A stretch of 64,000 nucleotides of DNA from an uncultured virus (IMG/VR IMGVR_UViG_3300031733_000001) (IMGVR_UViG_3300031733_000001); one strand, 5' to 3'; numbered from the stretch's first letter, positions 3,361 through 30,699 are shown. Made by a program: numbers and translations. The notes: a model not told the origin generated them from the letters alone.

Positions 3361-5397
3361 TTGGCACTCGGTAGCACTGGCAGCCAGACTGCTCTGAGGT
3401 TCAGCCGCACCCGCGGCCGCATGGGTGGGTCTGCCGACTATGGGCTGCAATACCCGAGCCCGTTCTTCGACATCGCCCATACGTACCTCCCTGCCACCGT
3501 GAAGATGATGTTCCGGTGGTGCCGGTACTACTTCCTAGTCAACCCGTTGATCAACGCCGTCGTCTTCAAGATGTCGGAGTATCCGGTCACCGACATCCTC
3601 TTCGACACGGAGCGCCCGGAGCTGAAGAAGATGTGGAGCGGCTTCCTCCTGGAGCAGCTCCGCTACCGTGCGTTCCAGATCGAGGTCGGGCTGGACTACC
3701 ACACCTACGGCAACGCCCTGGTGTCGGTCTTCTACCCGTTCGTGAAGTACTTGGAGTGCAACAACTGCAAGCACCGGGTGCCGGCGCGGGACGCGAAGTA
3801 CAGGTTCCAGAGCTTCAAGTTCCATACGATCTGCCCCAAGTGTGGCCACCACGGGCCGGCCAAGGCAGTTGACCACTACGTGAAGGCCCCGAAGGGGATC
3901 AGGCTCCTCCGTTGGAATCCGGAGGACGTGGACATCAGGTACAACGACCTGACCGGGGAGTACGAGTACTACTACACGATCCCCACGCGCCTGAAGAACG
4001 ACATCATCATCGGGAAGAAGTCTACCGTCGAGACCGTGCCCCAGCTCTTCATCGATGCGTTGAGGCTAAAGAAAGCGGTGGTCTTCTCCCGCGACAACAT
4101 CTACCACTTCAAGCGTCCGACGTTGGCCGGCAAGGACAGGGGGTGGGGTACCCCCATGATCCTGCCGGTGCTGAAGGACACCTTCTACCTTCAGGTCTTG
4201 AGGAAAGCCCAGGAGGCTATCGCACTGGAACACATCGTTCCCTTGCGCATTCTCTTTCCGCAGGCCGGTTCTGCCACGTCCGATCCATACACCTCGGTGA
4301 ACCTCCAAGACTGGAGGGATCAGGTTGCAGGTGAGATACGGCGTTGGCGGTCCGACAACAACTACATCCCGATCATGCCGCTGCCGGTCGGACACCAGAG
4401 CATCGGTGGTGACGGGCGGGCCCTCCTGCTGTCGCAGGAGATTCGGGTGTGGTCCGAACAGATCGTGGCCGGCATGGGTATCCCAGTGGAGCTCGTGTTC
4501 GGTGGTCTGAGCTACTCCGGTAGCAACGTGAGCCTGCGGATGTTGGAGAACACCTTCCTGGGCTATCTTCAGGACCATCTGTCGATGCTGAAGTGGGTCA
4601 TCTCTCGGACCTCTGCGTACCTGGGGTGGTCCCCTGTCAAGGCCAGGTTCAAGCCGTTCAAGATGGCGGACGACCTACAGCGGAAGGCCTACCTCTTCCA
4701 GATGAACCAGGCTGGCAAGCTCTCCGACGAATCTCTCCTGGCGGATGCGGACTACGACTCCTCCAAGGAGGACGAGATCATGAACCGGGAGGCTGCGCGC
4801 CGTGCGGAGAGCACGAAGAAGCAGCAGCTGCTCCAGGCGGAGATGCAGGGCGAGGCCCAGATGGTCCAGATGAAGTGGCAGATGAAGCTCCAGGCACAGC
4901 AGATGAAGGCTGAGGCGGCCGTGCAGAACGAGATCGCCAAGGACCAGGCTGCGTTCCAGGGAGCCCAGCAGTCACAGATGATGCAGGAGCAGATGGCTGC
5001 CCAGTCTGGGCAGCCGCCTCCGCCGCCGAACCCGGAGATGGCACCGTACCCACGCCAGCCCCAACTGATTCAGCCTCCCCCACCGGAGGTGCAGTCTCCG
5101 CTATCGATGCGCTCTGTCAATCAGATCCCCCCACATACCAGAGGGGAAGACCTGGCCGGGCGCACCAGCGTGGACCTGCTCCTGCTCGGCCGACAGATCG
5201 CCGACCGGATCTCCATGCTGGATTCTGTTCAGCGTCCGCGCGCCCTGGCCGAGCTCAGGGCGAGGCAGCCCGCGCTCTATGATGTCGTCTTGGGGCTAAT
5301 GGTGAGCGGAGGGCCCACCAGATCGGCAGCCGCAGCCGCGAGGCCTCTGCCTGAGCAGAAGCCCGCGCGGCGCGGCCCCGAGGCACAATTGATGTGA
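3361..5397 (+). CDS. portal protein with Zn-ribbon insertion and Q/P-rich tail
   Basis: Portal-like segments NPLINAVV..MSEYPV, LDYHTYGNAL, IYHFKR...GWGTPMI; 678 aa; located in the morphogenesis block; CNNC...CPKC insertion. Confidence 0.75.
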   Translation: MALGSTGSQTALRFSRTRGRMGGSADYGLQYPSPFFDIAHTYLPATVKMMFRWCRYYFLVNPLINAVVFKMSEYPVTDILFDTERPELKKMWSGFLLEQLRYRAFQIEVGLDYHTYGNALVSVFYPFVKYLECNNCKHRVPARDAKYRFQSFKFHTICPKCGHHGPAKAVDHYVKAPKGIRLLRWNPEDVDIRYNDLTGEYEYYYTIPTRLKNDIIIGKKSTVETVPQLFIDALRLKKAVVFSRDNIYHFKRPTLAGKDRGWGTPMILPVLKDTFYLQVLRKAQEAIALEHIVPLRILFPQAGSATSDPYTSVNLQDWRDQVAGEIRRWRSDNNYIPIMPLPVGHQSIGGDGRALLLSQEIRVWSEQIVAGMGIPVELVFGGLSYSGSNVSLRMLENTFLGYLQDHLSMLKWVISRTSAYLGWSPVKARFKPFKMADDLQRKAYLFQMNQAGKLSDESLLADADYDSSKEDEIMNREAARRAESTKKQQLLQAEMQGEAQMVQMKWQMKLQAQQMKAEAAVQNEIAKDQAAFQGAQQSQMMQEQMAAQSGQPPPPPNPEMAPYPRQPQLIQPPPPEVQSPLSMRSVNQIPPHTRGEDLAGRTSVDLLLLGRQIADRISMLDSVQRPRALAELRARQPALYDVVLGLMVSGGPTRSAAAAARPLPEQKPARRGPEAQLM

Positions 5398-6512: not shown

Positions 6513-6647
6513 CTACCCGTCATCCCCATCATCGGAGTCGTTGGAGTCCTGGTCGTCCTGGTCGTCCGACTCTCCGTTGACCTGATCATCGATCAGGTCT
6601 TGGAACTCCTCCAGGGTAGACTCCTCCGGCTCAGTTGGATCGGACAT
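6513..6647 (-). CDS. 44-aa very acidic peptide (not in ORF track)
   Basis: AAAGGAG SD 6 nt before ATG 6647; MSDPTEPEESTLEEFQDLIDDQVNGESDDQDDQDSNDSDDGDDG; TAG at 6513-6515. Confidence 0.55.
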   Translation of the reverse strand: MSDPTEPEESTLEEFQDLIDDQVNGESDDQDDQDSNDSDDGDDG

Positions 6648-6789
6648 TCGCATCTCCTTTGTTTGGGGGAACACTTTCGTTCCCTGTTCTCATACACTGT
6701 CCTTATAACCAACACGCGGCGGTTCTTTCGTTGCCACAACACCAGTTGATCTGGTAGCTTAGGCATGACGTACATACGGAGATGGCCCA

Positions 6790-9700
6790 ATGGCGCGTCT
6801 TTCACCGGAAGAGGGTTTTGAGATCCTCAAGGACCGGGTAGGCAAGACAGTCGAAGGGCTCTTCCCGATCGTAGGGAAGAAGCAGACCCTCGAACTGAAA
6901 GATGTTCAGATCAAAGACGACCTGAGCATCGATGACATCCGGTCCCAAAAGAAAGCGAAGACCCACAGCCGCACCTGGGCTGTGCCCGTCGAGGCTCGAG
7001 TCCGCTTGAGGGATAACACGACTGGGAAGGTAGTGGACGAGCAGAAGGTTCGTCTCCTCAACCTCCCCAAGACGACCCGCCGCTACACCCAGATCGTGGA
7101 TGGCCAGGAGTATCAGATTGACAACCAGTGGCGCCTGAAGTCCGGGGTCTATGCCAGGGTCAAGGACAACGGCGAGCTGGAGTCCTCTTTCAACCTGGCC
7201 AAGGGCCGCGGCTTCAGTGTGGACTTCGATCCGAAGAGCCGCCAATTCACCATGGGCTACGGCACATCCAACATTCCCCTCCAACCCATCCTGCGGGAGA
7301 TGGGGATGCCGCAGGAGGAGATCGAGAAGAGGTGGGGCAAGCCCATCGCTGGTGCCAACGAGAAGAGCCACGAGCAGGCGGTCATGAAGTTCTACAAGGC
7401 CTCCACCGGCAAGAAGGCGGAGAGCCTGGACCAGGCACGTGAGCACCTGCACGCCACCTTCGCGGAGACCGAGCTGCGCCCGGACACCACCAAGATCACG
7501 CTGGGCAAGGGCTACAAGAAGGTCAGTGGGCCGGCCCTCATGGATGCGGCCACCAAGCTGCTGCAGGTCTCCCAGGGCAAGGCGGAACCAGATGCTCGTG
7601 ACGCGCTGATGTTCAAGGAGCTGCACGCCACCGAGGACTTCTTCTCCGAGCGGATCCAGAAGGGCTCCAGCGACATCATGCGCCGGATCCAGAACACGCT
7701 GGACAAGAAGAAGAACGTCCGCGACATCGTGGGCCCGGACATCTTCAACCGCCCGATCAGGACGATGTACACCAAGAACTCACTGGCGAACGTCCCGGAA
7801 CAGACCAACCCCTTGGAGATGATCTCAGGTCAGATGAAGACCACGATCACGGGGGAGGGCGGCATCAAGAGCGCCCACGGGATCACCGAGGACGCCAAGC
7901 TGGTGGACCCGTCCCACCTCGGATACTTGGATCCTATCCACACGCCGGAGGGCCAGACCACTGGCGTGACGTTGCGCCTACCGATCGGTGTGAGGAAGCA
8001 GGGGCATGACGTCACGATCAAGATGTACAACGTCAAGACCGGCAGGCTCGAGGATGTCAATCCCGAGAAGGCGATGAACGCCAACGTGATCTTGCCGGAT
8101 CAAGTGAGGTGGGAGAAGGGCAAGCCAGTACCGGTAGGTAAGAAGGTCCGGATGAGCACGGTGGGCAACGAGATCACAGAGGGCGCCATGAAGGATGCCC
8201 AGTACGTGATGAAAGACCCGATCCAGATGTTCTCCATGGCCTCCAACATGGTACCCTTCCTGGCTGCCGATCACCCCAACCGCAGCACGATGGCCGGTCG
8301 GCACATGGAGCAGGCCATCTCCCTGAAAGATCGACAGGCACCGCTGGTCCAGAGCCTGGCCGGGACCAAGACTTTCGACCAGGTGATGGGGAGCTATGCC
8401 GGGCATACCGCTCCCGTGGATGGGGAGGTGGTGCAGGTGAAGAAGGACTCCATCGTGGTCAAGGGCGCTGATGGCAAGAAGTACGAGCGGCAGATCTACG
8501 ATCACTTCCCACTGAATGCGGACAAGGGGTTCCTCCACTCCGAGCCTACAGTGAAGAAGGGGGACAGGGTGAAGAAGGGCCAGTCCATCGCTGACACCAA
8601 CTTCACCAAGGGTGGGACGCTGGCCCTGGGAACGAACCTGCGCGTCGGCTACATGCCCTACAAGGGCTACAACTTCGAGGATGGTGTGGTCATCAGCGAG
8701 AGCGCGGCTCAGCGCATGGCCTCGGAGCACATGCACCGGAAGACGCTGTCCCTGGACAAGGACCACATCCAGAGCAAGGCGAAGTTCCAAGCCTATGTTC
8801 CGGAAGCCATGACCAAGAACCAGGCCAGTAAGTTAGACGATGATGGGGTAGTGAAGCCGGGACAGCAGATCATGCCGGGTGACACCCTCATCGCCGCGCT
8901 CAAGAAGAGGACCGAGCGGGCGGAGGATAGGGAGCTGGCCAAGATCCACAAGTCTCTGGTCAAGCCCTTCCAGGACAGCAGTGTGAAGTGGGAGGCCGAT
9001 CATCCAGGTGTAGTCACTGAGGTGGTGAAGCGGGGCAGGCAGACGGCCGTGCACGTCAAGACGCTCGAGCCGATGGAGATCGGGGACAAGCTGGCTGGTA
9101 GACATGGGAACAAGGGCATCGTCACCAAGATCATCCCGGATGACGAGATGCCCAAGACCAAGGACGGCAAGAAGCTTGAGGTCTTGATGAACCCCACCGG
9201 TGTGCCCGGCCGGGTCAACCTGGGGCAGACTCTGGAGACGGCCGCCGGGAAGATCGCCGAGAAGACCGGCAAGCCCTACATCGTCAAGAACTTCCAGCCC
9301 AACGAGGACCTCCACGCCAAGGTGTCCGCCGACCTGAAGAAACATGGGATCAAAGACAAAGAGGAGGTGTTCGATCCCGTGTCTGGTCGGAAGTTGGGAG
9401 ATGTTCTGGTCGGTCCTCAGCATATCATCAAGCTGAAGCACCAGGTCGAGAAGAAGATGGTGGCCCGCGCTGGAGGACCCGGCTACGCCTACGACCGGAA
9501 CATGGTCCCAAAGGGTGGCGGCCCACACGGTGCTCAGGCTTTGGGCACCCTGGGTCTCTATTCCATGCTGGCCCATGGGGCTACTCACAACCTGCGGGAG
9601 ATGCAGACGCTCAAGAGTGATGCCGCCCAGAACGACGAGTTCTGGTCTGCCCTGCAGGCTGGTGAGGCTCTTCCCGCACCCAGGCCGACGTTCGCCTACA

Positions 9701-12700
9701 ACAAGTTCACCTCCTACCTGAAGGCCTTGGGGGTGAACGCGAAGAAGGACGGCAACAACCTCCAGCTCGTACCCTTCACCGACAAGCAGGTGGAGGAGAT
9801 GAGCAACGGTGCCATCAAGGACGGCGGCAAGATGGTGCGTGCCAAAGACCTGAAGGCAGAGAATGGTGGCTTGTTCGACCCCAAGGTGACGGGCGGCGTC
9901 GAGGGGACGAAGTGGAGCCACATGAAGCTCCCCGAGCCGTTCCCCAACCCACTGTTCGAGAAGTCTATCCAGTCTCTGACCGGCATCACCGGCAAGCAGT
10001 TCGGCGACATCATCGCTGGGAAGAGTGCGTACGATCCCAAGACTGGTGGCTTCACGACCAACACGGAGAAGGGTCTCACTGGTGGTAAGGCGTTCGACGC
10101 CATGCTTGGGAAGATCGACGTGGACAAGGAGCTGGCCAGCGCGAAGAAGGCTCTGGCCTCTCCTGGCCTGAAGGGCAACCGCCTGGACCGGGCCAACAAG
10201 AAGGTGAAGTACCTGTCCGCGCTGAAGAACGCGGGGCTGACGGCCAAGGACGCCTACATGATGAAGAACGTCCCGGTGCTACCGCCCTCGATGCGTCCGG
10301 TGTCCCAGCTCCCGAACGGAGATCTGAACTTCGACGACCTCAATGGCATGTACAAGGGCATCGCCCTGTCGGCCGGGAGGTTGAATAACATGTCACCCCT
10401 GCTGCCGGACGAGGAGAAGAACGAGGTCCGGTCGGAGATCTACGACGGACTGAGGTCTCTCACTGGCCTGGGTGGTCATGCCAACCGGGAGTTCCGCGGG
10501 ATCCTGGACATCCTGGGTGGGAAGCGTCCGGAGAAGGTGCAGGGCCGCGGCACCGGAAAGAAAGTTGGTCAGCCCAAGACAGGGTTCTTCCAGAGCAAGT
10601 TGGTCCAGCGGAAGCAGGACCTCTCGATGAGGTCCACCATCATCCCGGAGCCGGCGTTGGGCCTGGATGAGGTGGGCCTGCCCCGCAAGGCTGCGCTCGA
10701 GCTCTACAAGCCGTTCGTCGTTCGCGAATTGCGGAACCTCACAGGTGTCTCCCCGCTGGAGGCTCAGAAGCAGATCAGCGAGGGCGGACAGATGGTGAAC
10801 AAGGCGCTCGAGCGGGTGGTGGAGCAACGCCCTGTTCTCCTGAAGCGCGATCCCGTGCTACACAAGTATGGGATCCAGTCCTTCAAGCCGCGTATCGTGA
10901 GTGGCAAGGCCGTACAGATCCACCCGTTGGTGACCTCCGGCTTCAACGCTGATTTCGACGGCGACACCATGGCTGCCTTCGTCCCGGTAGGCAACGAGGC
11001 CGTGGAGGAGGCGAAGAAGATGGCCCCCTCTCGCAACCTCTTCAATCCGGCTACCGGGAGCCTGATGTATGCTCCCACGCTGGAGACGCAGCTCGGTCTC
11101 TATGGTCTGACTCGTCCGGGCGCCAAGACCAGCAAGAGCTTCAAGACCATGCAGGAGGTGGAGTCGGCTGTCCGGAAGGGGCAGGTGAACTTGAACGATC
11201 AGATCAAGGTCGGTGGTTTGTCCAATACCACTGGCAAGTTCATGATCGCCGGAGCCCTGCCATCGGAGATGCGGAAGAACTTCCTCCAGAGGTCGGGTCC
11301 GCTGGACAAGAAAGGACAACAGCAACTCTTGACCGACTTGGCCAAGAATCACCGCAACGATTACGGCGAGGTGGTCAACAAGCTGAAGGACTTGGGGAAC
11401 AAGTGGTCCACCGAAACAGCGTTCAGTCTTGGCCTGGATGACATCAAGCCGGACAAGGCTCTCCGACAGCAGGTGTTGGCCAAGGCCGATCGGCAGGTGG
11501 CGGCGCTCCAGGGGACCAGGGAGCAGAGGGACGCCAAAGCTGTTCAGATCTACGCCAAGGCGACGGACGAGCTGCATGCCAAGATGAATGCGACGGACGA
11601 GCGGAAGAGCAATCTGCTGGTCATGAACAACGCTGGCATCAAGCCGGGCACCGATCAGCTTAGGCAGATTCGCTTGGCTCCGATGCTCATCTCCAATGCC
11701 AAGGGGGAGACGATCCCTACCCCGGTCAAGAAGTCCTACTCCGAGGGGCTTGACCTGGCGGACTACTGGACGTCCATGAGCGGTGCTCGCAAGGGCATCA
11801 TCCAGAAGGTCCAGCAGGTCCAGGAGCCTGGGTACATCTCCAAGATGGTGATGAATTCGGTGATGGACAACTCCATCATCGATGACGACTGTGGTACGGA
11901 CAAGGGCATCGCTCTGTCGATCGATGAGAAGGACGTGCTAGATCGCTATCTGGCAGCGGACACCAAGGTTGGGAGGAAGATCTTCAAGGCGGGCACGCTG
12001 GTGACTCCCGAGGTTCGGACTTCCCTGCGCAACAACAAGGTGGGTCGGGTACTGGTGCGTTCGCCGCTCCGCTGCCAGCACGGGCCTGGTCTGTGCAAGA
12101 AGTGCTTCGGCCTGACGGAGGACGGCAAGCCCCCGGAGAAGGGGCTGAACGTCGGTGTGCTGGCCGGCCAGGCCCTGGGCGAGAGGTCTGCTCAGCTGGC
12201 GATGAAGGCGTTCCACACGGGCGGCACGGCGGCCAGCAAGGAGGAGATCGTCGACGAGTTCGGCAGGCTGAAGAATCTCCTCCTGTTCCCGAAGACGTTG
12301 CGTGGTGCTGCTACCCTCAGTACAGTGAGCGGAAAGGTGGACAAGGTCCAGAAGGATCCAGCCGGTGGACACAACGTCTTCATCGGGGGCAAGCGGCACT
12401 ATGTCCCACAGAATCGTGGGGTCCCAACGATAGCTGGGCGCCAGCTCCGCAGGGGTATGGAGGTGAAGAAGGGGGCGGCCATCTCTGGCGGTCCCGTGAA
12501 CCCACACGAGATGCTGCCCCTGACGGGGGTGGAGCCGGTGCAGGGGTACATCACCGGAGAGTTGCACAAGATCTACTCCCCGCACGGTATCCGTCGACGG
12601 AACTCCGAGGTGGTGGTCAAGGCCTTGACGAACCTCACCAAGGTGGAAGATCCTGGTGATCACAAGGATTTCATCCGGGGAGACTTCGCACCGACCTCTC

Positions 12701-12954
12701 ATGTTGCTAATCTGAACCGGAAGGGCAATGGGAAGAGGCCGATCGTGCATCGGCCGGTTCTGAAGGGAGTCAACATGCTGCCGCTGGACATGCAGGAGGA
12801 CTGGATCGCCCGCATGAACCACCAGCGGATCGGGCAGACGGTGATCGACGCTGCCCAGCAGGGATTTACTACCAAGCTGCACGGCAAACACCCAATCCCA
12901 CCCGTGGTGTACGGGGCGGAGATAGGTCGGGGCGCCAAGCCCGGGGAGTACTGA
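6790..12954 (+). CDS. rpoBC: DNA-directed RNA polymerase, fused beta + beta' subunits
   Basis: Beta motifs GYNFEDG, GDKLAGRHGNKG, NPTGVPGRVNLGQ and LREMQTLKSD, followed in frame by beta' motifs GLFDP, VPVLPP..RP, KRDPVLH, catalytic NADFDGD (10945-10965), bridge helix SGARKG and trigger loop QLAMKAFHTGG. Confidence 0.95.
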   Translation: MARLSPEEGFEILKDRVGKTVEGLFPIVGKKQTLELKDVQIKDDLSIDDIRSQKKAKTHSRTWAVPVEARVRLRDNTTGKVVDEQKVRLLNLPKTTRRYTQIVDGQEYQIDNQWRLKSGVYARVKDNGELESSFNLAKGRGFSVDFDPKSRQFTMGYGTSNIPLQPILREMGMPQEEIEKRWGKPIAGANEKSHEQAVMKFYKASTGKKAESLDQAREHLHATFAETELRPDTTKITLGKGYKKVSGPALMDAATKLLQVSQGKAEPDARDALMFKELHATEDFFSERIQKGSSDIMRRIQNTLDKKKNVRDIVGPDIFNRPIRTMYTKNSLANVPEQTNPLEMISGQMKTTITGEGGIKSAHGITEDAKLVDPSHLGYLDPIHTPEGQTTGVTLRLPIGVRKQGHDVTIKMYNVKTGRLEDVNPEKAMNANVILPDQVRWEKGKPVPVGKKVRMSTVGNEITEGAMKDAQYVMKDPIQMFSMASNMVPFLAADHPNRSTMAGRHMEQAISLKDRQAPLVQSLAGTKTFDQVMGSYAGHTAPVDGEVVQVKKDSIVVKGADGKKYERQIYDHFPLNADKGFLHSEPTVKKGDRVKKGQSIADTNFTKGGTLALGTNLRVGYMPYKGYNFEDGVVISESAAQRMASEHMHRKTLSLDKDHIQSKAKFQAYVPEAMTKNQASKLDDDGVVKPGQQIMPGDTLIAALKKRTERAEDRELAKIHKSLVKPFQDSSVKWEADHPGVVTEVVKRGRQTAVHVKTLEPMEIGDKLAGRHGNKGIVTKIIPDDEMPKTKDGKKLEVLMNPTGVPGRVNLGQTLETAAGKIAEKTGKPYIVKNFQPNEDLHAKVSADLKKHGIKDKEEVFDPVSGRKLGDVLVGPQHIIKLKHQVEKKMVARAGGPGYAYDRNMVPKGGGPHGAQALGTLGLYSMLAHGATHNLREMQTLKSDAAQNDEFWSALQAGEALPAPRPTFAYNKFTSYLKALGVNAKKDGNNLQLVPFTDKQVEEMSNGAIKDGGKMVRAKDLKAENGGLFDPKVTGGVEGTKWSHMKLPEPFPNPLFEKSIQSLTGITGKQFGDIIAGKSAYDPKTGGFTTNTEKGLTGGKAFDAMLGKIDVDKELASAKKALASPGLKGNRLDRANKKVKYLSALKNAGLTAKDAYMMKNVPVLPPSMRPVSQLPNGDLNFDDLNGMYKGIALSAGRLNNMSPLLPDEEKNEVRSEIYDGLRSLTGLGGHANREFRGILDILGGKRPEKVQGRGTGKKVGQPKTGFFQSKLVQRKQDLSMRSTIIPEPALGLDEVGLPRKAALELYKPFVVRELRNLTGVSPLEAQKQISEGGQMVNKALERVVEQRPVLLKRDPVLHKYGIQSFKPRIVSGKAVQIHPLVTSGFNADFDGDTMAAFVPVGNEAVEEAKKMAPSRNLFNPATGSLMYAPTLETQLGLYGLTRPGAKTSKSFKTMQEVESAVRKGQVNLNDQIKVGGLSNTTGKFMIAGALPSEMRKNFLQRSGPLDKKGQQQLLTDLAKNHRNDYGEVVNKLKDLGNKWSTETAFSLGLDDIKPDKALRQQVLAKADRQVAALQGTREQRDAKAVQIYAKATDELHAKMNATDERKSNLLVMNNAGIKPGTDQLRQIRLAPMLISNAKGETIPTPVKKSYSEGLDLADYWTSMSGARKGIIQKVQQVQEPGYISKMVMNSVMDNSIIDDDCGTDKGIALSIDEKDVLDRYLAADTKVGRKIFKAGTLVTPEVRTSLRNNKVGRVLVRSPLRCQHGPGLCKKCFGLTEDGKPPEKGLNVGVLAGQALGERSAQLAMKAFHTGGTAASKEEIVDEFGRLKNLLLFPKTLRGAATLSTVSGKVDKVQKDPAGGHNVFIGGKRHYVPQNRGVPTIAGRQLRRGMEVKKGAAISGGPVNPHEMLPLTGVEPVQGYITGELHKIYSPHGIRRRNSEVVVKALTNLTKVEDPGDHKDFIRGDFAPTSHVANLNRKGNGKRPIVHRPVLKGVNMLPLDMQEDWIARMNHQRIGQTVIDAAQQGFTTKLHGKHPIPPVVYGAEIGRGAKPGEY

Positions 12955-12955
12955 C

Positions 12956-13276
12956 ATGAACGAGCAGATAATGCGGGCCTTCGCCGATGAGATGGAGACC
13001 ATCCAGAAGGAAGCTGGCATCGGCAGCTTTCTGGCCAGTGGTTTCAAGGGCCTGGGGACCGTGGGCAAGAGGTCTCTTAGCCAACACGGCGATATCCTCA
13101 AGAAGCTGTGGGCCCGCGGGCAGCGTGGTGGGGGCGGTACATGGGGCAGCATCAAGCAGATCGCCAAGTCCCCCTACGGCCGCATGGGTGCGGCCGCCGG
13201 TCTGACCGGGCTGGCCGGGTACGGTGCCTACAAGGCGACCCTCGGCAGAGATCGACGCAGGCAGCAGCAGTACTAG
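12956..13276 (+). CDS. small basic glycine-rich protein with FADEMETIQKEA leader
   Basis: Acidic leader ending in KEA, then a basic body and the hydrophobic segment GAAAGLTGLAGYGAYKA. Confidence 0.6.
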   Translation: MNEQIMRAFADEMETIQKEAGIGSFLASGFKGLGTVGKRSLSQHGDILKKLWARGQRGGGGTWGSIKQIAKSPYGRMGAAAGLTGLAGYGAYKATLGRDRRRQQQY

Positions 13277-14554
13277 ATGTTCCAGAACTCCCCATCAGAT
13301 GGGCCCGGCAACAAGCCGGCCATCATCGAGACGGGCGTCATCGCCAACGTCAACGTCCGCAATCTCACCGCCGACTGGGTATCGCAGTACAGCGGCAAGC
13401 AGATCCCCGACCTCCAGATCATGACGCCCTACCTGCACTTCAACAACGGGGAGGGCTTCACCTGCATCCCGGAGGTGGGTGCCATCTGCACGATGTGCAT
13501 GCCCTCGGACGGAGATCCACCGTTCATCATGGGATTCCTCTGCGGCCCGGAGATGGAGGGCGCCGACGTCGACAAGTACCTGGAGGATAAGCTCAAGGAC
13601 CCTGGTGTGGAGACGGAGGAAGATCTGCCGGCCAGCAATACCAGCAACGCCGGCGGGTCTACTGCTGTCTCCACCAACCCCACAGACGCCAGCTTCCGGG
13701 GTGGTCGTCCCATCCTCAACCCGGGGGACATGCTCTGGCAGGGGAGGGATGAGAACTTCGTGGTGCTCAAGCGCGGTGGTGTGCTGCAGCTGGGCTCCAC
13801 CCAGATCTGCCAGCGAGCCTACATCCCACTGCTCAACTACATCCGTGACTTCTGCGAGAACTACGAGCTCAACACCGCGGCCGGCACCCTGAGCTGGCAG
13901 GTGCTTAGGGATGAGAACAACCCCTCCGGCGACGCCCCCACGGAGCTGCACCTCATCGCCAGGGAACATGCCCAGGACAAGAAGGCCTCGGTCAAGGTGA
14001 GCGTCGGAAGCCTGGAGGACGCAACCAAGCCTCCCGGTGGGGACACCACCTTCATCGAGGTGACGATCGCCCCGGAGAAGATCGACGCGGACAGTGGGAG
14101 CGTGTCTGGCAAGCCCAAGTATGTGATCCGCCTGGACAAAGAGGGCAACACCTACCGGATGCAGGGCGGCGACTGCACAGAGGAGATCGACGGCGATCAC
14201 ACGCTGACAATCAAGGGCAAACAGACGGTCAAGGTGACGGGGGCGCAGGAAGTCACAGCCCTGAGCCAGAAGACTGTCCTCACGGCAACCCATGAGATCC
14301 AGGGGGCGATAAGCAGGGAGACCTGGACCGGGCCGAAGAGTATCACCGCGGCTCTGCTGAAGTTGGGGAGCGAAGCTGCTTCCGAGCCAGCGGTTCTTGG
14401 ACTAAAATTGGTGGCGTGGCTGGCGTCACACACGCACCTGGTCAAGGCGCTACCTGATCCCGCACCGGGTCCGCCGTCCTTGCCCACTCTGCCGCCTGTG
14501 ACAGCGGCCCAGACGAAGGACCTGGTCAGCAAGACAGTTCTTGTGAATCAGTAG
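13277..14554 (+). CDS. baseplate central spike (gpV/gp5-like)
   Basis: N-terminal OB-like region with IPEVGAIC and PFIMGF; beta-repeat C-terminal half; terminal HxH (SHTH) metal-binding tip motif typical of contractile-tail spikes. Confidence 0.65.
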   Translation: MFQNSPSDGPGNKPAIIETGVIANVNVRNLTADWVSQYSGKQIPDLQIMTPYLHFNNGEGFTCIPEVGAICTMCMPSDGDPPFIMGFLCGPEMEGADVDKYLEDKLKDPGVETEEDLPASNTSNAGGSTAVSTNPTDASFRGGRPILNPGDMLWQGRDENFVVLKRGGVLQLGSTQICQRAYIPLLNYIRDFCENYELNTAAGTLSWQVLRDENNPSGDAPTELHLIAREHAQDKKASVKVSVGSLEDATKPPGGDTTFIEVTIAPEKIDADSGSVSGKPKYVIRLDKEGNTYRMQGGDCTEEIDGDHTLTIKGKQTVKVTGAQEVTALSQKTVLTATHEIQGAISRETWTGPKSITAALLKLGSEAASEPAVLGLKLVAWLASHTHLVKALPDPAPGPPSLPTLPPVTAAQTKDLVSKTVLVNQ

Positions 14555-14563: not shown

Positions 14564-16579
14564 ATGGACCTCTTTCTCGATAAGAATCTGACGTTTGAGA
14601 AGCTCGGACTAGAGGCTCGGATGTCGGAGGACCCGAACACCTGGCCCCAGCAGATCTTGGACCAGCTCTACCGGCAGGCGCCCTACACCAGCGACTACAT
14701 GCCGAAGGTGGTGCTGGACGACATCGACCCCGACCGCCGGTACGCCCGGGGCAGGGTTGATCTGATCAACAAGCTGGCTATCAACCCCCGGGACGATGCC
14801 ACCCCGGCGGAGATGAAGGGGTCTGATAAGGTGATCGTCCCGGTGATCATCAAGGACGGGAAGCTGTCCCCGCTCGACCTGCTGATGCACAACGGCCAGG
14901 CGGAGCCCTTGACCGAGACCAGGCTGCGCGCCGCCCTCTTCCGCCCCAACCTCTTCGAGGCGATCCGGAAGACGCCGGGGGACATGAGCATGATCGACCA
15001 GCTCTACCCACCCCACCGGCAGTACGGTGGTGCACGCGGCCCACTCATCGCGGACGCCGGCGCGCAGGGCTCCGGCATGACCAGGACCTCGGCAGCCAAG
15101 CCCGAGTTCCTGATCGACGCCATCATGCCCACGATCAAGAAGGCGCATGTGGCAGAGATGACGGCCCAGCTCAACCGGGACCCGTCTCTCCGCACAGCCA
15201 TCTTCAGCAATCCCGCGACCTTCAACGTGATGGCCAAGCTGGCCCAGGTCGAGGCGGCCAGGGTCCACCCCCAGACCTACCTGGAGAAGATCGCCAGCAG
15301 CATCAAGCCAACGGTCATCCAGGTCCAGAAGATCGACGGGGGTTTCAGGATCAAGACCGCCAACGAGAACGCCCTCATCCCGGACTCCACAGATGTGGAC
15401 CGGCCGGCGGCGGTCGGCGCCCTGGGTGGGGACCTGGTGTCCAAGGTGGAGTCGGATGGCACCACCACGATCACCACCCAGACGGCAGCCAAGGACACCC
15501 TGGAGGACCTGACCATCACGGTGGTCACCGAGTTCGGTCTCTACAAGGTCCGGACCGCAGGCGACAACCGGGAGCTGGTGGGCTGGGTCTTCCCCAGGGT
15601 GATGGATTTCTCAGGTGAGGTCCTGCCGATGGCGGTCTTCTCCAACGGCAGCGAGTCCGCGCAGCAGGAGAACATCGCTGGTGTCCCACTCGCCAGGCAG
15701 ACCGATGTGCTGGACGCGGAGCCGATGGGAGAGGGCTGCTTCTACCATGCCACCCCGCAGGGCGCCGTGGCCTTCATCCCGGTCACCATCAAGTCCCAGG
15801 CGGAGACGCCGCAGGGCAAGTCCTACATCGCCGAGACACATCTCGGCGAGTCTCTCGACATCGTGAAGGTGGAGGGGCTCAAGACTGCCTCGCCGATCGG
15901 CCCGGGCCGGGTGGGCATCCCCATGGAGTGTGGCTGGCTGCCGCTCGAGAACATGGTGGACCTGGCATCCAGTCCGGACGAGTTCACCAAGACGGCAGAG
16001 GCGATGGCCCTGAGCACCAACGCAGTGCGCGTCATCACGGACGGCCAGTGCTTCAGCTTCGAGGGGAAGGAGATCGACAAGCTGGCTGGTGTGATGGAGA
16101 CCCAGTTCCTCCCGCTGGACGACGCGGTGTTCCTGGCCACCATCCTGGGGCAGGAGCCGGAGATGGTGAAGACGGCCCTCGCCAACCTCCGCCGCAAGGG
16201 CAGGTACGAGACCTGGTTCCGAGCGCGGGAGGTGCATCCCTTCAAGGACAAGTACGCGGCGGCCAAGAAAGTGGCTGCCGAGAAGCTGGGTGCGTTGCCC
16301 GACCTCCGGGCGGACCTGCTGAAGGAGGCGGCGCCGCTCGAGGACCCGACGGCAGTGGACAAGATCCTCAGCCTGGGAGTCCTCAACCCGGAGAACATCT
16401 CGATCTTCGCCAGCTACGCGCCGGAGTTCGAGGACGTGATCAAGAAGCTGTCCGAGCTGCTCCTGTTCAGCCGCTTGGGCATGAGTTCGGTGGAACAGGG
16501 GGCGATCCAGAAGTCGCTCGTCCACCTGGACAAGGTGGTGGAGGGGCTGAAAACTCTGGGTACCGTCCCGCAGGCGTAA
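14564..16579 (+). CDS. hypothetical head/core protein
   Basis: 671 aa, AGGAG SD, many K-x-A motifs (MAKLA, LEKIA, FTKTA, IDKLA, LLKEA). Confidence 0.6.
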   Translation: MDLFLDKNLTFEKLGLEARMSEDPNTWPQQILDQLYRQAPYTSDYMPKVVLDDIDPDRRYARGRVDLINKLAINPRDDATPAEMKGSDKVIVPVIIKDGKLSPLDLLMHNGQAEPLTETRLRAALFRPNLFEAIRKTPGDMSMIDQLYPPHRQYGGARGPLIADAGAQGSGMTRTSAAKPEFLIDAIMPTIKKAHVAEMTAQLNRDPSLRTAIFSNPATFNVMAKLAQVEAARVHPQTYLEKIASSIKPTVIQVQKIDGGFRIKTANENALIPDSTDVDRPAAVGALGGDLVSKVESDGTTTITTQTAAKDTLEDLTITVVTEFGLYKVRTAGDNRELVGWVFPRVMDFSGEVLPMAVFSNGSESAQQENIAGVPLARQTDVLDAEPMGEGCFYHATPQGAVAFIPVTIKSQAETPQGKSYIAETHLGESLDIVKVEGLKTASPIGPGRVGIPMECGWLPLENMVDLASSPDEFTKTAEAMALSTNAVRVITDGQCFSFEGKEIDKLAGVMETQFLPLDDAVFLATILGQEPEMVKTALANLRRKGRYETWFRAREVHPFKDKYAAAKKVAAEKLGALPDLRADLLKEAAPLEDPTAVDKILSLGVLNPENISIFASYAPEFEDVIKKLSELLLFSRLGMSSVEQGAIQKSLVHLDKVVEGLKTLGTVPQA

Positions 16580-16582: not shown

Positions 16583-17473
16583 ATGGTCACTCGAAGCCCA
16601 GCCGAGAACTTCATCAAGTTCCTGCTCTCGCAGCAGGAGCATGAGACCAACACCATCCTCCGGATGCTGGAGGATTTCGGGTTGGAGGGGCTGAGCTCCA
16701 ACTACATCGACCGTCTGAAGCTCAAGATGGAGCCGTTCCCAGATCCATGGGACCCGGTGAACGATCCCGAGACGAAGGCGTACCTGAAGCGCCACGGAAT
16801 CCACGATCTGTGGTACCCGAATGCGCATGTGAAGGAGGCCTACTCGATCTTGTCTACTCCTCAGCTGCGTGCTGACGTGGAGCAGCTCTTGCTGTCGCCG
16901 CTGAGGATCGAAGAGGTGGTGAAGCGGCTCAACGACCACCATGGGATCCAGCTCACGGTGGAGGGTGTGGCTGCCTTCGGTCACTACTTCTGGAACAAGG
17001 TGCTCCTACCCATGCACGACTGGGTGGAGCTGATGGAGGACCGCCCCTACATCAACAACCACACCGCCGTGCTCCGGGTCAGCCCGGACGTGGCGCAGAC
17101 CCTCGTCCCCTGGGTCATGGGGTATGCCGGTCCACCGAAGTCGCTCAACACGGGCACGGTGGCCAGGCGCATGAGGGACATCGCGTTCCTGAAGGTTCTG
17201 GAGATCGAGCGCAATCCAGCTACGCTGGCGCACTCGAAGATGATGAAGAACTACATGGACGTGATCAAGGCCGCAGAGTCCGAGATGCGCCAGTCCGATG
17301 TGGCGCTGAAGGATGTGCTGCAGGCGTTCGAGAAGTTCCGCCTGCGCAAAGATGACGTACCGATCCCCTCCATCGAGGAGGTAGCAGGCCCCAACTACAG
17401 CCACTCTGGGGAGGGGACCGACCGCACTGGGGCGTTCGCCGACTACGAAGTGGAGGATATGGAAGATGGCTGA
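16583..17473 (+). CDS. hypothetical protein (terminase small subunit candidate by position only)
   Basis: 296-aa helical-looking ORF upstream of TerL; no diagnostic motif. Confidence 0.45.
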   Translation: MVTRSPAENFIKFLLSQQEHETNTILRMLEDFGLEGLSSNYIDRLKLKMEPFPDPWDPVNDPETKAYLKRHGIHDLWYPNAHVKEAYSILSTPQLRADVEQLLLSPLRIEEVVKRLNDHHGIQLTVEGVAAFGHYFWNKVLLPMHDWVELMEDRPYINNHTAVLRVSPDVAQTLVPWVMGYAGPPKSLNTGTVARRMRDIAFLKVLEIERNPATLAHSKMMKNYMDVIKAAESEMRQSDVALKDVLQAFEKFRLRKDDVPIPSIEEVAGPNYSHSGEGTDRTGAFADYEVEDMEDG

Positions 17474-17987
17474 GACAGAGCAGAAGCCTTTCTGGATGGA
17501 CGAAGAGGAGTGGGAGAAGCGGTACCCCAAGATGCCGCAGGAGAACATCGCCGAGCAGGTGGTGAACGCTGTGCCCGAGCTGCACCCGGTGGAGAAGGGT
17601 GAGGTGGTCGGGGCCTACACCACCAAGGACGGCCTGTTGATCTACCACTTCTACAAGCGGGACCGGAAGAAGATCTACGACGAGGCTCACGCCGAGATGG
17701 ATCGGATCCGTGACGAGGAGCCGCCGGCGGAAGTATCCAGGCTGCAGCAGGCCGTGGCCACCGGAGCCAACGTCGACCTGGACGCCCACCCCTGGTGGCC
17801 GGAGATGTCCCAGGTCTTGGACGAGGTCTTCACCGAGCACTTCAAGCACCGCCCGAAGAAGATCACCTTCTACCCCGAGCCCGACGCTTGGTCGGTCATC
17901 ATGCCCGAGCCGGATGGCCCGGTGTCGATGGGCAAGTCCCAGCTCGAGGCCCCATTCGCAGCGGTCGCCCTCAAGGTTGGGGGCTAA
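17466..17987 (+). CDS. hypothetical protein
   Basis: 173-aa ORF overlapping the upstream stop; followed by the GGCCGGC-gtt-GCCGGCC hairpin. Confidence 0.55.
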   Translation: MAETEQKPFWMDEEEWEKRYPKMPQENIAEQVVNAVPELHPVEKGEVVGAYTTKDGLLIYHFYKRDRKKIYDEAHAEMDRIRDEEPPAEVSRLQQAVATGANVDLDAHPWWPEMSQVLDEVFTEHFKHRPKKITFYPEPDAWSVIMPEPDGPVSMGKSQLEAPFAAVALKVGG

Positions 17988-18243: not shown

Positions 18244-20070
18244 ATGGCGACGATCAATTTGGCAGAAGCGGAGGTCCTCAGATCGGCTAAGGTGATCCCT
18301 CTGCTCTACTCCCTGGATGGGGAGATCAAGGAGCCCTGGTTCGACTACGACGACGAGGGCAATCCACAGGACTTCGGGATCGATTTGGAGCCGCCGGACC
18401 CCACTCCGGACGACCTGCTGGATGTCGAGGCCGACACGTTCATCTACGACGTGTCCCCCTCATCGTTCGCCGAGACTGCGATCCGTGTGCCGGAGGCAGG
18501 CCAGGTCTCAGACTTCAGCTTCGAGGGCCGCGAGTACCTCCGCCGCATCTATGACACCACTGCGGACAAGGTCCTGCTCAAGTGCGGCCGCCAGGTGGAG
18601 AAGTCCACGACCCTCGGCAACAGGCTGCTCTGCTACTCGGCACTGACCAACAACTTCCGCTCCCTGTTCGTCGCCCCCTCGGCCGAGCAGGCCAAGGTCT
18701 TCTCGACAGATCGCATCAAGGACGTGGTGGAAGCGTCGCCGTTGATGAAGGCGTACACCACGACCAAGATCTCACAGGCTGTCTTCTTCAAGAAGTTCAT
18801 CAACTTCTCGCAGATCCGTCTCCGCTACGCCTACCTCACGGCCGACCGTGTCCGTGGTATCCCGGCGGACTTGATCTGCATCGATGAGATCCAGGACATC
18901 CTCATCGACAACATCCCGATCATCGAGCAGTGCGCCTTCCACTCCAAGTACAAGCTGTTCGTCTACTCCGGCACGCCGAAGTCGATGGACAACACGCTCG
19001 AGCACTACTGGTCGGAGTTCTCCACCCAGAATGAGTGGATCGTCCCCTGTGAGAGGCACGGCACGCCCAAGGATCCCAGCTCCTGGCACTGGAACATCTT
19101 GGGCGAGAAGAACATCGGTGAGAAGGGTTTGATCTGCGACAAGTGTGGGGAGCCCATCGACGCTACCCACCCCATGGCTCAGTGGGCGTCGATGAATCCG
19201 ATCACTGAGGACAACAAGGACAAGGTCACCTTCGAGAGCTACCGCATCCCACAGATCATGGTGCAGTGGGTGGACTGGGACGAGATCTTGGCCGCTCAGG
19301 AGCAGTACCCACGTGCCCAGTTCATGAACGAGAAGCTGGGGCTCTCCTATGATTCTGGCGTGCGTCCCATCACCAAGGGTCAGCTCAAGGCATGCTGCAA
19401 GCCAAGCATCAGGTTGGGGGACATCGAGCACTTCAAGCGCCTGGCCTCTGGGCGTCAGATCTTCGCCGGCCTGGACTGGGGTACGGGCGAGAACACCTAC
19501 ACGGTTATCTCCTTCGGGGGCTACTTCGGGACCGGGAACTTCTCCATCTTCTGGATCCACCGTTTTACTGGGCCAGACCTGGAGCCCGAGCGGCAGCTGG
19601 ATCTCATCACCCAGATGATCGCGCAGCTCAACGTCCAGCTCGTAGGGGTGGACTATGGCGGGGGTTTCTATCCCAACGATACTCTGCTCCGGCGGTTCGG
19701 ACCCAGCAAGATCATGAAGTACCAGTACAACCCCAGGCAAAAGAAGAAGGTGTACTGGGAGCCGAATCTCCTCCGCCACATGGTCCACCGCTCCGAGGTG
19801 ATGAGCGATATCTTCAACGCCATGAAGCGGAAGCTGATAGATCTACCGAACTGGGAGGACTTCCGGGAGCCTCACGGCACTGACATCCTCAACATCTTCG
19901 CCGAGTACAACGAGCGGTTGAGGATGATTGAGTACAAGAAGGCGCCAGGCAAGACGGACGACGCCTTCCATTCGATCCTCTACTGCATCTTGGTCTCCAT
20001 GATTATGCGGCCAAGGCCCGACATCCTGACCCCGATGAAGGACACCGGAGTGCCGCCGTCTCACGGGTAA
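18244..20070 (+). CDS. terL: terminase large subunit (lambda GpA-like family)
   Basis: Walker A-like KCGRQVEKST, Walker B LICIDE, coupling motif SGTP, Zn-ribbon CERH..CDKC, nuclease motifs AGLDWG and DDAFHS. Confidence 0.9.
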   Translation: MATINLAEAEVLRSAKVIPLLYSLDGEIKEPWFDYDDEGNPQDFGIDLEPPDPTPDDLLDVEADTFIYDVSPSSFAETAIRVPEAGQVSDFSFEGREYLRRIYDTTADKVLLKCGRQVEKSTTLGNRLLCYSALTNNFRSLFVAPSAEQAKVFSTDRIKDVVEASPLMKAYTTTKISQAVFFKKFINFSQIRLRYAYLTADRVRGIPADLICIDEIQDILIDNIPIIEQCAFHSKYKLFVYSGTPKSMDNTLEHYWSEFSTQNEWIVPCERHGTPKDPSSWHWNILGEKNIGEKGLICDKCGEPIDATHPMAQWASMNPITEDNKDKVTFESYRIPQIMVQWVDWDEILAAQEQYPRAQFMNEKLGLSYDSGVRPITKGQLKACCKPSIRLGDIEHFKRLASGRQIFAGLDWGTGENTYTVISFGGYFGTGNFSIFWIHRFTGPDLEPERQLDLITQMIAQLNVQLVGVDYGGGFYPNDTLLRRFGPSKIMKYQYNPRQKKKVYWEPNLLRHMVHRSEVMSDIFNAMKRKLIDLPNWEDFREPHGTDILNIFAEYNERLRMIEYKKAPGKTDDAFHSILYCILVSMIMRPRPDILTPMKDTGVPPSHG

Positions 20071-28454: not shown

Positions 28455-29576
28455 ATGAGCGTACCAGCAAGAGTTCTGAACGATCTCTTCACCCACAAGG
28501 TCGGAACGGCCGAGGGGAAGGAGAAGATCGCGGAGTACGCCGGCACCTACATCCGGGACCGTCTGCGTGAGGTGGCCTACAGCCGTAAGGTCATCCCGCC
28601 CCAGATGGTCACCCGGGCGGACTGCCAGCGTTCCGTCAACCACGACACCCTGGTGAAGATCGTGGACGTCGAGCCCAAGAGCCGCGCCATGGCCATCACC
28701 TTCCGCGGTCAGCCGACCGCCCGGTTCATCCGCGCCCCGCGGGCCGAGGTCCCCTTCTACACGATCTCCTCGGAGAAGTTCGAGAAGACCGAGCAGGAGC
28801 TCCTCGCCTACGAGATGCCGGTGACCAAGATCATCGAGGACAACTCGGTGAAGGACATCCAGGAGATCGAGGACCGCGAGTTCACGATCCACATCGAGGC
28901 CGCCGTGCAGGCGCTCCAGGCCGAGGCGAACGGTGGCGCTGTCACCACGCTGAACGCCAGCGCCATCACCGCCGGCACCGTGGTCGAGTTCTCGGTCCGC
29001 AAGGGCGCCCTGGCCCGCGCCGCCGCGGCGGACGACGCTACCGTCCTGCCGATCCAGCGGCCCGACCTGGTCAACCTCTTCAAGATGCTGGACGGGAATC
29101 GCCTGCGGGCGGAGCTCATCCTCATCACCGAGGTCGACTGGGACGACATCCTGCAGTGGACGGTGGAGGACTTCGGCGACAAGCTGCAGTCCGAGACCAC
29201 CACCGACGGGTACAAGTACAACCTGCTCCTGGGCAGGCAGTACGTCCGCACCATCAAGACCGACATCCTGCGGCCCGGCAACGTGTACTGCTTCACCAAG
29301 CCGGACTTCTTCGGTCGCTTCTACATCCTGAACAACACGAAGTTCTACATCGACAAGATCGCGAACCTGATCACGTGGCAGTCCTGGGAGGACATCGCCA
29401 TGTCGGTCATCAACATCGCGTCGGTGCGGAAGCTCGAGCTGTACTCGGGGGACGCGACCGCGAACGACGCCGACGGCATCCTCTCCTCGGTCATCCCCGT
29501 GGACGAGGAGGACCTCGGCGCCGAGAACAACCGCGTGGACTCCGGTCTGGTGTACCCGGGGGTCGAGACCTACTAG
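28455..29576 (+). CDS. major capsid protein
   Basis: 373 aa, extreme C/G-ending codon bias, position after protease/scaffold/decoration, followed by a strong terminator; IRDRLRE..YSRKVIPP N-terminal pattern. Confidence 0.75.
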   Translation: MSVPARVLNDLFTHKVGTAEGKEKIAEYAGTYIRDRLREVAYSRKVIPPQMVTRADCQRSVNHDTLVKIVDVEPKSRAMAITFRGQPTARFIRAPRAEVPFYTISSEKFEKTEQELLAYEMPVTKIIEDNSVKDIQEIEDREFTIHIEAAVQALQAEANGGAVTTLNASAITAGTVVEFSVRKGALARAAAADDATVLPIQRPDLVNLFKMLDGNRLRAELILITEVDWDDILQWTVEDFGDKLQSETTTDGYKYNLLLGRQYVRTIKTDILRPGNVYCFTKPDFFGRFYILNNTKFYIDKIANLITWQSWEDIAMSVINIASVRKLELYSGDATANDADGILSSVIPVDEEDLGAENNRVDSGLVYPGVETY

Positions 29577-30255: not shown

Positions 30256-30699
30256 ATGCCAAAGGTATGGAACCTGACGAAGAAGGGCGTCCCTCTGCTC
30301 CGCTGGAGGGTGCTGCCCGACAACCGGGTGTTGGACCCCCAGGGCCGCATCCATGATCAGCTGCCTGACGATGTCGGGTACAGCGCACAGGCCAAGCGGC
30401 TCTGCGAGCTGGGTGTCCTGAACATCGAGGGTGTCAGCTGGTTCCCCGAGCCGGAGAAGGCGAAGAAGGCCCCACCGGCCCCGGAAGATCCCGGCATGCC
30501 GGAGATGTCCAGGGTCGATGACCTGACCGAGCTGGTGCACATCGGCAAGGGCCGCGCCAAGAAGCTGGAGGCGGTCGGGGTGGTCACCTTCGCCGACGTG
30601 GTGGAGATGGGCGTCCGAGATCTGGATCGTCTGCTCGAGATCACCCGGGACATGGCCGAGGAGATCGTGGCCGATGCCGAGGGCAAGGTGGAGCCATGA
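30256..30699 (+). CDS. second HhH-domain protein (domain paralog of upstream gene)
   Basis: DDLTELVHIGKGRAKKLEAVGV aligns with the upstream HhH domain. Confidence 0.7.
   Translation: MPKVWNLTKKGVPLLRWRVLPDNRVLDPQGRIHDQLPDDVGYSAQAKRLCELGVLNIEGVSWFPEPEKAKKAPPAPEDPGMPEMSRVDDLTELVHIGKGRAKKLEAVGVVTFADVVEMGVRDLDRLLEITRDMAEEIVADAEGKVEP

Follow-up and report, generated by a model that had tools for sequence, protein, structure and literature searches.

What kind of RNA polymerase (RNAP) is encoded by a phage gene that carries beta and beta' in one frame, and on which partners does such an enzyme depend? This question is raised by 64,000 nucleotides of DNA from an uncultured virus (IMG/VR IMGVR_UViG_3300031733_000001), here called the window, in which positions 6790 to 12954 of the plus strand form one open reading frame (ORF) of 2054 codons that encodes beta and then beta' in a single 226-kDa polypeptide of 2054 amino acids (aa). 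An initial annotation of the window had described the product as a minimized, bacterial-like but alpha-independent phage RNAP, possibly packaged in the virion. We are close to certain that the ORF is an RNAP gene of the phage itself, an uncultured tailed phage from soil, and that this single-chain, bacterial-type enzyme has phage sigma-like partners and neither alpha nor omega from the phage.

The bacterial type of the enzyme was evident from domain, structure, and alignment searches, as the initial annotation had supposed. Pfam identified the beta domains Rpb2_3 and Rpb2_6 (the latter at residues 575 to 897; E = 2.5e-63) in the first half of the chain and the beta' domains Rpb1_1 (weakly), Rpb1_2, Rpb1_3, and Rpb1_5 in the second half, and the top matches among solved structures were bacterial beta' chains (E = 2e-107). 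BLASTP against RpoB of Escherichia coli K-12 aligned window residues 24 to 178 with E. coli residues 56 to 220, 245 to 745 with 420 to 931, and 739 to 983 with 1044 to 1336, at 25 to 28% identity. In RpoC, residues 181 to 939 and 1154 to 1346 were matched by window residues 1098 to 1812 and 1841 to 2032, respectively, and the identity of the beta' module to E. coli RpoC was 29% over 787 columns. The GRHGNKG lysine motif of the beta barrel (residues 770 to 776) aligned with E. coli, and the RpoC alignment placed the catalytic NADFDGD motif of the magnesium site at residues 1386 to 1392 (10945 to 10965, plus strand). The bridge helix and the first trigger-loop helix with its FH were in place, and the four cysteines of the second zinc site (residues 1701, 1762, 1769, and 1772; 11890 to 12105, plus strand) aligned to those of the E. 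coli site, which we take to be C814, C888, C895, and C898. The catalytic motif, bridge helix, trigger loop, and second-zinc-site cysteines, all described as retained by the initial annotation, were invariant among 18 family members. The catalytic core of this two-barrel enzyme is complete.

The surfaces on which sigma docks, namely the clamp helices of beta' and the flap-tip region of beta, retained their length relative to E. coli and were largely invariant in the same 18 members. At E. coli positions 513, 514, 516, 526, 529, 531, and 533, which we take to lie in the rifampicin pocket and to be tied to resistance mutations, the window RNAP carries N, V, E, G, K, T, and T, and from these residues we predict that the enzyme would be insensitive to rifampicin.

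Beta runs into beta' with almost no linker, as had been noted. Pfam, the RpoB alignment, and the GRHGNKG motif define a beta module of residues 1 to 983 (6790 to 9738), and Pfam, the RpoC alignment, and the structure matches define a beta' module of residues 989 to 2054 (9754 to 12954 with the stop codon). Alignment with bacterial beta' N-termini and with the proteins of Salmonella phage Arash and Vibrio phage D69, two named relatives discussed below, leaves about five residues (AKKDG; 9739 to 9753) between the modules, all on the plus strand. The junction peptide KFTSYLKALGVNAK covers residues 972 to 985 (nucleotides 9703 to 9744); the last beta residues, LKALGVN, end at residue 983, beta' begins at about residue 989 (NNLQLVPFTDKQ), and the linker residues K986 and G988 were invariant in the 18 family members.

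No stop or frameshift was found at this junction. Among contigs of public runs placed on window positions 9000 to 10500, contigs from two other studies span it (9566 to 10167 and 9618 to 9832) with 0 differences and 0 indels, and a 32.9-kb contig that is a possible source of the window DNA also spans it with 0 differences. The stretch from 9000 to 10500 occurs in 12 public runs from 11 studies, with no RNA run listed and with rhizosphere metagenomes making up all large-share rows; pieces at least 99% identical to it came from three studies besides the possible source. The junction was read through without a stop in 91 of the 92 related loci that cover this region (a few of these loci are duplicates drawn from five records), and an open frame of at least 2000 aa was present in 72 of those 91, the others ending at contig or locus ends. 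That a bacterial rpoB-rpoC pair was joined by an assembly or sequencing error, or that bacterial DNA entered a phage bin, has as its only support that some relatives were called as separate beta' genes, and we reject it as next to impossible, since independent contigs hold the same junction, nearly all loci read through it, the genes on either side belong to a phage, the tree described below puts the window RNAP outside bacteria, and the start sites of the separate beta' calls fall at eight different positions (window residues 961 to 1132), as expected of truncated calls. The fusion is not an artifact.

We compared the length of the enzyme with that of its bacterial counterparts in an alignment of six members of the family with six pairs of bacterial beta and beta' (E. 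coli, Bacillota, Clostridiaceae, Bacteroidota, Planctomycetota/Phycisphaera, and Saccharibacteria). The beta' zinc-binding domain (E. coli residues 68 to 99; 32 residues with four cysteines) is present in 6/6 bacteria, and the same 32-residue segment is deleted in the window RNAP, in all six family members aligned, in Arash gp206, and in D69_0261. In the window protein, the N-terminal Cys4 domain reported as absent by the initial annotation corresponds to a 32-column gap between G1039 and T1040 (9904 to 9909, plus strand). The halves of the chain, put earlier at about 985 and 1070 aa, measure about 985 and 1066 aa, and the smallest bacterial proteins sampled have 1123 and 1238 aa. The long gaps, however, mostly correspond to E. 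coli-specific inserts (beta 229 to 345, 939 to 1049, and 1126 to 1179; beta' 943 to 1124), presumably those known as SI1, SI2, and SI3. Segments common to most bacteria that are absent comprise beta 13 to 30 and about 220 to 228, the beta' zinc-binding domain, part of beta' 558 to 570, and the C-terminal tail, and no family-specific insertion of 10 or more residues was seen in this alignment. The description of the enzyme as minimized thus stands only in a modest sense: both halves are shorter than any bacterial protein sampled and the zinc-binding domain is lost, but most of the missing length consists of inserts specific to E. coli.

The window RNAP belongs to a large family. A word-indexed search returned 2426 homologous proteins at an E value of 1e-10 or below; among the best 120 of these, 79 have 2039 to 2078 aa, 39 have 2251 to 3591 aa, and 2 are shorter, and the contigs that carry them reach 188 kb. 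In 30 of the best 120, all among the 39 longer ones, the RNAP chain harbors Pfam domains of the intein, LAGLIDADG, or homing-endonuclease type, and the window copy contains no intein or homing-endonuclease domain. In IMG/VR, 288 of 299 candidate stretches encode relatives. Five relatives of 177 to 193 kb are 100% complete according to CheckV, one of them with direct terminal repeats, and the window represents about a third of a genome of this kind; a 52.5-kb fragment record carries the same RNAP, cut at residue 255. In the phage collection searched, the named relatives that cover most of the protein are only Vibrio phages D69, D148, and D181 (31% identity) and Salmonella phage Arash (34%). Soil, wetland, and aquatic metagenomes commonly contain members of the clade, hardly any of which have been cultured, and in the literature covered, which did not extend to subscription journals, we found no paper describing a fused RNAP family. 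Contigs of the clade, mostly of 162 to 204 kb, are also filed in metagenome-assembled genomes (MAGs) named Desulfatibacillum, Anaerolineales, Leptolyngbyaceae, Deltaproteobacteria, and Bacteroidales, most likely by binning error, and the RNAP of such misplaced contigs could pass for a host marker gene.

A phylogeny with cellular and phage RNAPs, suggested in the initial annotation, separated this clade from bacteria. The beta' tree (IQ-TREE; LG+C20+F+G4 with posterior mean site frequencies [PMSF]; 676 columns) was built from two beta' blocks only (window residues 1098 to 1475 and 1505 to 1812); it is unrooted and has some long branches. Its 58 rows are a hand-picked subset comprising 22 fused proteins, 9 separately called beta' proteins, Arash, D69, 14 bacteria, 6 other phages, and 5 unnamed metagenomic sequences. 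A branch supported at 100/99 has on one side every fused row and every separate beta' row together with Arash and D69. The bacteria, including the Campylobacterales row, form their own group (100/99), to which Rhizobium phage TM30, Vibrio phage Va2, E. coli phage EP_H11, and Ralstonia phage RP13 are sister (97/91); Cobetia phage Carin-5 and Yersinia phage YerA41 are far off. Within the clade, the forks that place Arash and D69 have weak support (72/77 and 69/73). The enzyme thus does not fall within a well-characterized phage RNAP clade, its closest relatives with names, Arash and Vibrio phage D69, having received little study. Among the fused rows, the separate beta' proteins occur in scattered positions, and one (P0152) starts at the junction; most look like truncated gene calls because of their differing start sites, and we did not accept them as proof of real splits.

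Which partners the chain might have was addressed by running partner profiles on the five complete relatives, with 14 controls per profile. The beta-barrel profile PF00562 found one RNAP locus in each of the five (controls, 14/14), in one case as a match interrupted within a single 2391-aa frame. The alpha profiles PF01000 and PF01193 and the omega profile PF01192 matched 0/5 relatives and 14/14 controls each. Sigma region 2 (PF04542) was found in 2/5 relatives, in 192-aa ORFs (controls, 10/14), and sigma region 4 (PF04545) was found in 4/5, two of them over the cut-off (controls, 14/14). In the window itself, a Pfam scan of its 88 ORFs found no alpha or omega family, in agreement with the initial annotation. 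The statement that a complete sigma gene is also missing holds within the window, where only one region 4-like ORF was seen, but not for the group, since relatives encode sigma-like ORFs and Arash has the sigma factor gp10. The window ORF in question (62401 to 62922, minus strand) encodes a 173-aa protein with a sigma region 4-like helix-turn-helix at its N-terminus (PHROG 351, E = 6e-7; Pfam Sigma70_r4, E = 5e-4, below the cut-off; NCBIfam RpoD C-terminal region, E = 4e-6), a possible transcription factor rather than a full sigma, and it has a weak match in one relative only. The absence of alpha and omega genes from all five relatives is consistent with independence from host alpha.

The position of the RNAP gene between the portal and spike genes, which had led to the suggestion of packaging, was supported by homology and by a structure model. 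The portal protein gene (3361 to 5397, plus strand) was assigned by tblastn, with 32% identity to gp204, the portal protein of Arash (E = 1e-90), and 34% identity to its D69 counterpart, and has a weak PHROG portal match. The RNAP gene heads a row of six plus-strand genes, in which the gaps after RNAP are 1, 0, 9, 3, and −8 nucleotides and no terminator-like site was seen between genes. One nucleotide after the RNAP stop codon begins a 106-aa glycine-rich ORF (12956 to 13276), with homologues in five related loci only, followed by a 425-aa gpV/VgrG-like protein assigned as the central tail spike (13277 to 14554), a conserved 671-aa protein (14564 to 16579), and two tightly packed ORFs of 296 and 173 aa (16583 to 17987; homologues in 66 and 25 loci, respectively) that close the row. 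The gene for the terminase large subunit follows at 18244 to 20070 (plus strand; PHROG 675, E = 1e-56; Pfam GpA_ATPase; 31% identity to Arash gp1). For the spike, an AlphaFold2 model built from 39 sequences (predicted local distance difference test [pLDDT] score, 76) matched in Foldseek the central spikes of contractile injection systems and of phages phi812, PhiTE, Mu, P2, and phi92 and VgrG of the type VI secretion system (E = 2e-5 to 4e-3; probability, 0.97 to 1.0); the TM-scores are low (about 0.2), as would be expected when a monomer of a trimer is modeled.

This gene order is conserved. In a survey of 93 related loci with the RNAP gene, the portal gene was upstream of RNAP in 65 and never downstream, and downstream of RNAP lay the spike in 78 of 80 eligible loci, the terminase in 59 of 64 eligible loci, the 671-aa protein in 77 loci, and the 296-aa protein in 66. 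The conserved order is portal, RNAP, spike, 671-aa protein, 296-aa protein, and terminase, and the portal-RNAP-spike order is kept down to 43 to 50% identity. The window shares with Arash the genes for the portal (gp204), terminase, gp220 to gp222, the major capsid protein, gp233, gp234, gp236, and gp237.

Since a minus-strand cassette of small ORFs separates RNAP from the portal gene, the RNAP gene needs a promoter of its own. A candidate, read from the sequence, is TTGCCA-N18-TGgTAGCTT (6731 to 6760, plus strand), which is sigma-70-family-like, with five of six matches in the −35 hexamer and an extended −10 element. The TCTGGTAGnTT box upstream of the RNAP start codon recurs in many relatives; elsewhere in the window it showed no recurrence above chance. 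A simple sigma-70 scan called 0 sites between 5300 and 18400, the candidate included, and upstream of the other plus-strand virion genes no box shared with the RNAP gene was seen.

A second motif points to a putative phage promoter class. The 8-mer CTTATAMC occurs in 8 copies in the window (0.19 expected), at 5888, 6702, 18202, 48905, 50647, 53586, 55032, and 63595 (plus strand as written), all in divergent intergenic regions, and in the window and 80 related loci together its orientation is uniform in 115 of 116 copies. On the minus strand, a logo of 101 sites, about half of them homologous RNAP-upstream regions, has an nATAAG box, a purine exactly 7 nucleotides downstream, and an A-rich patch at the −35 distance. 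Minus-strand ORFs with ribosome-binding sites begin mostly 21 to 41 nucleotides from the boxes. We infer a minus-strand orientation and consider the nATAAG box a candidate promoter class for small, possibly early, genes. The copy nearest to the RNAP gene, the CTTATAAC box at 6702 to 6709 (minus strand), reads GTTATAAG on the minus strand, resembles a −10 element, and is the probable driver of the divergent small ORF at 6513 to 6674. CTTATAMC had also been considered as the promoter of the RNAP gene and was dropped in favor of a minus-strand promoter on the basis of the logo, the ORF spacing, and the orientation.

Virion data come from the relative Arash, whose RNAP consists of gp206 and gp216. 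According to the accessible part of the report on this phage (PMC10585845), gp206 was detected in a virion preparation at 100% coverage with 128 unique peptides and 3516 spectra, the highest number of all proteins; gp216 had 1210 spectra, and the sigma factor gp10 was detected as well. We regard these data as suggestive of packaging, not decisive. From the Arash data combined with the row of six genes and the conservation of gene order, we lean toward the view that the RNAP is made with the virion parts and packed for the next infection.

In such a scheme, the chain would need no assembly platform encoded by the phage in order to fold and work, its covalent link would take over the role that alpha has in cells, and phage sigma-like factors would start transcription at the phage's own promoters. 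The RNAP would be produced together with virion parts, since it heads six tightly packed genes that include the central spike; copies would be packed in the head, delivered with the DNA, and start early transcription. Because there is one RNAP gene per genome, the same enzyme would serve later stages too. In its most far-reaching form, this would be a self-sufficient, sigma-dependent one-chain RNAP that needs no alpha, omega, or host factor, is packed in the head, perhaps with its own sigma as hinted by Arash, and as the sole phage RNAP runs the whole transcription program from phage promoters such as nATAAG. We put this complete version forward only tentatively and think it rather less probable than its failure in at least one part.

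Several points weigh against packaging or self-sufficiency. Fusion alone is no proof of independence from alpha, because cellular rpoBC fusions such as that of Helicobacter still use alpha. Searches with the two 192-aa sigmas of the relatives returned nothing from the window or from the remaining complete genomes; these sigmas have diverged too far for either to retrieve the other. A sigma-70-like promoter before the RNAP gene, if it is one, would also be compatible with transcription by the host enzyme early in infection. The spike genes of Arash are not adjacent to its RNAP gene, and spectral counts rise with protein length as well as with abundance. The same preparation yielded 116 proteins scored as virion proteins, including ribonucleotide reductases, RNA ligases, and helicases; its authors offer carry-over as an alternative, cesium chloride (CsCl) is not mentioned in the accessible text, and the spectra were searched against a phage-only database (PMC10585845), so that host alpha and omega would have been invisible.

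A separate point from packaging is whether the chain recruits a host alpha dimer, and perhaps omega or a host sigma, as cellular rpoBC fusions do. The lack of phage alpha and omega in an enzyme so clearly of bacterial type, with 25 to 29% identity to E. coli, would fit this, as would the fact that host subunits could not have shown in the Arash proteome. We nevertheless consider it improbable. The RNAPs of the phiKZ and AR9 type function without alpha and omega, as far as described in the accessible part of PMC7598289. The hosts of the relatives are unrelated (Salmonella and Vibrio, with fused relatives binned with five phyla), and this lowers the likelihood that a fit to host alpha has been conserved. 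In the clamp helices, E. coli positions 278, 295, and 297 are kept in the window RNAP and positions 275 (S), 281 (N), and 293 (K) differ; we take all of these to be sigma-70 contacts, and the differences fit a phage-specific sigma.

The main rival to packaging is that the enzyme acts in the manner of the T7 RNAP, outside the virion. Host RNAP would then transcribe the RNAP gene early, the phage enzyme would run the middle and late genes, the location among virion genes would be historical, and the Arash signal would be carry-over. The sigma-70-family-like candidate promoter, the minus-strand cassette that sets the RNAP gene apart from the portal gene and hence calls for a promoter of its own, and the many nonstructural enzymes in the Arash preparation all speak for such a role, and a single RNAP per genome is unlike the virion and nonvirion pair of phiKZ-like phages. 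On the other hand, no gaps separate RNAP from the central spike and further conserved virion-block genes downstream, which points to coexpression, and the portal-RNAP-spike order has persisted among distant relatives. Moreover, in the accessible Arash data gp206 exceeded the major capsid protein in spectra, and the sigma gp10 was detected too. On balance, we hold the T7-like role to be possible but doubtful.

Production with virion parts and packaging for the next infection thus remains the reading that we prefer. If it is correct, early transcription independent of the host would have a third known route, besides those through the single-subunit enzyme of N4 and the split enzymes of phiKZ. 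To our knowledge, all cellular RNAPs of bacterial type need an alpha-like assembly platform. If the chain were active alone, it would be the simplest known bacterial-type RNAP, one polypeptide plus a small sigma; one could then test directly why alpha and omega are required and whether joining beta to beta' covalently can replace them, and it would offer a compact orthogonal transcription system for structure work and engineering. If the fully self-sufficient version held, a widespread phage clade would be entirely independent of host transcription.

Other genes of the window also deserve mention. The model of the 671-aa protein downstream of the spike (pLDDT, 75) had an orthologue in an uncultured phage as its only clear BFVD match; Foldseek found no PDB match at an E value of 0.001 or below, and the ESM Atlas gave no usable match. 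Scattered, nonsignificant Foldseek rows pointed to trypsin-like beta-barrel proteases (DegS, HtrA, and 3C). Two ORFs right after the major capsid gene (29671 to 30252 and 30256 to 30699, plus strand) end in HHH_5 DNA-binding motifs, which are unusual there. An 1125-aa ORF (36613 to 39990, plus strand) matches the tail sheath (PHROG 279, E = 2e-14) and Arash gp236 over its last 200 or so residues and is far longer than usual sheaths. The first large gene of the minus-strand arm (42681 to 45278) encodes 865 aa, with a topoisomerase-type C4 zinc ribbon (residues 319 to 359) as its sole match. A 157-aa ORF (54237 to 54710, plus strand) with an Acb2/Tad1 hairpin domain (Pfam, E = 2.5e-12; PHROG 1454) is likely a signal sponge against CBASS or Thoeris. 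Finally, a 641-aa ORF (55322 to 57247, minus strand) has a ThyX thymidylate synthase domain at residues 413 to 571, preceded by about 400 residues without a family match.

Compared with known systems, the window RNAP shares with the cellular rpoBC fusions of Helicobacter and other Campylobacterales and of Wolbachia the presence of beta and beta' in one polypeptide and in the same order. Those enzymes, however, keep the zinc-binding domain and use alpha and omega, and on the tree the Campylobacterales row lies inside the bacterial group and the window RNAP outside it. The best NCBIfam match of the window protein was NF007172, with 535 bits against a cut-off of 5372, and NF011417 gave 488 bits against 4632.

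With the jumbo phages of the phiKZ and AR9 type, the window phage has in common a phage-encoded relative of beta and beta' without alpha or omega, and in these phages one RNAP set is packed in the virion and injected (accessible parts of PMC7598289 and PMC13282480). Their RNAPs comprise four to five polypeptides, are present in two sets in each genome, are not known to be accompanied by a sigma homologue, and show far greater divergence, whereas the window enzyme is one chain from one gene per genome, aligns easily with bacterial enzymes, and has relatives with sigma-like ORFs. The gp66 protein of crAss-like phages is likewise a single chain of about 2000 residues with two barrels, packaged in the virion and ejected (10.1101/2020.03.07.982082, available portion). 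According to the accessible text of PMC7481178, similarity of its sequence to cellular beta and beta' cannot readily be detected, in contrast to the window RNAP, which matches them at E values of 1e-63 to 1e-107. The window RNAP is thus neither a phiKZ/AR9-type enzyme nor a crAss gp66 nor a cellular rpoBC fusion.

The mReC group (Weinheimer and Aylward 2020; PMC7481178, accessible part) resembles the window phage in comprising uncultured tailed phages whose beta and beta' branch apart from the cellular ones. Its description sets it apart, with two separate proteins and 0 fused in 89 of 104 supplementary rows (PMC7481178), and its capsid proteins match the T4-type family PF07068, as far as the same text goes, whereas the window capsid ORF (28455 to 29576) has no Pfam match. 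As far as seen in the 89 of 104 rows compared, the window RNAP is not among the mReC contigs.

The nearest known RNAPs are those of Arash (gp206 and gp216, with the sigma gp10; OQ632216; PMC10585845, accessible part) and of Vibrio phages D69, D148, and D181. Arash and D69 share with the window the beta' tree clade (100/99), the beta-beta' fusion, the deletion of the 32-residue zinc-binding domain, a portal gene just upstream of RNAP, and portal, terminase, major capsid, and tail genes. They differ in sequence, with 31 to 34% identity to the window RNAP, and in that their beta' is cut at about window residue 1476 to 1480, which yields proteins of 1525 aa and about 606 aa with genes in between, while the window chain is whole. 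The two RNAP genes of D148 and D181 are separated by genes that include a homing endonuclease, so that homing elements may have caused the split of beta' in the Arash/D69 lineage.

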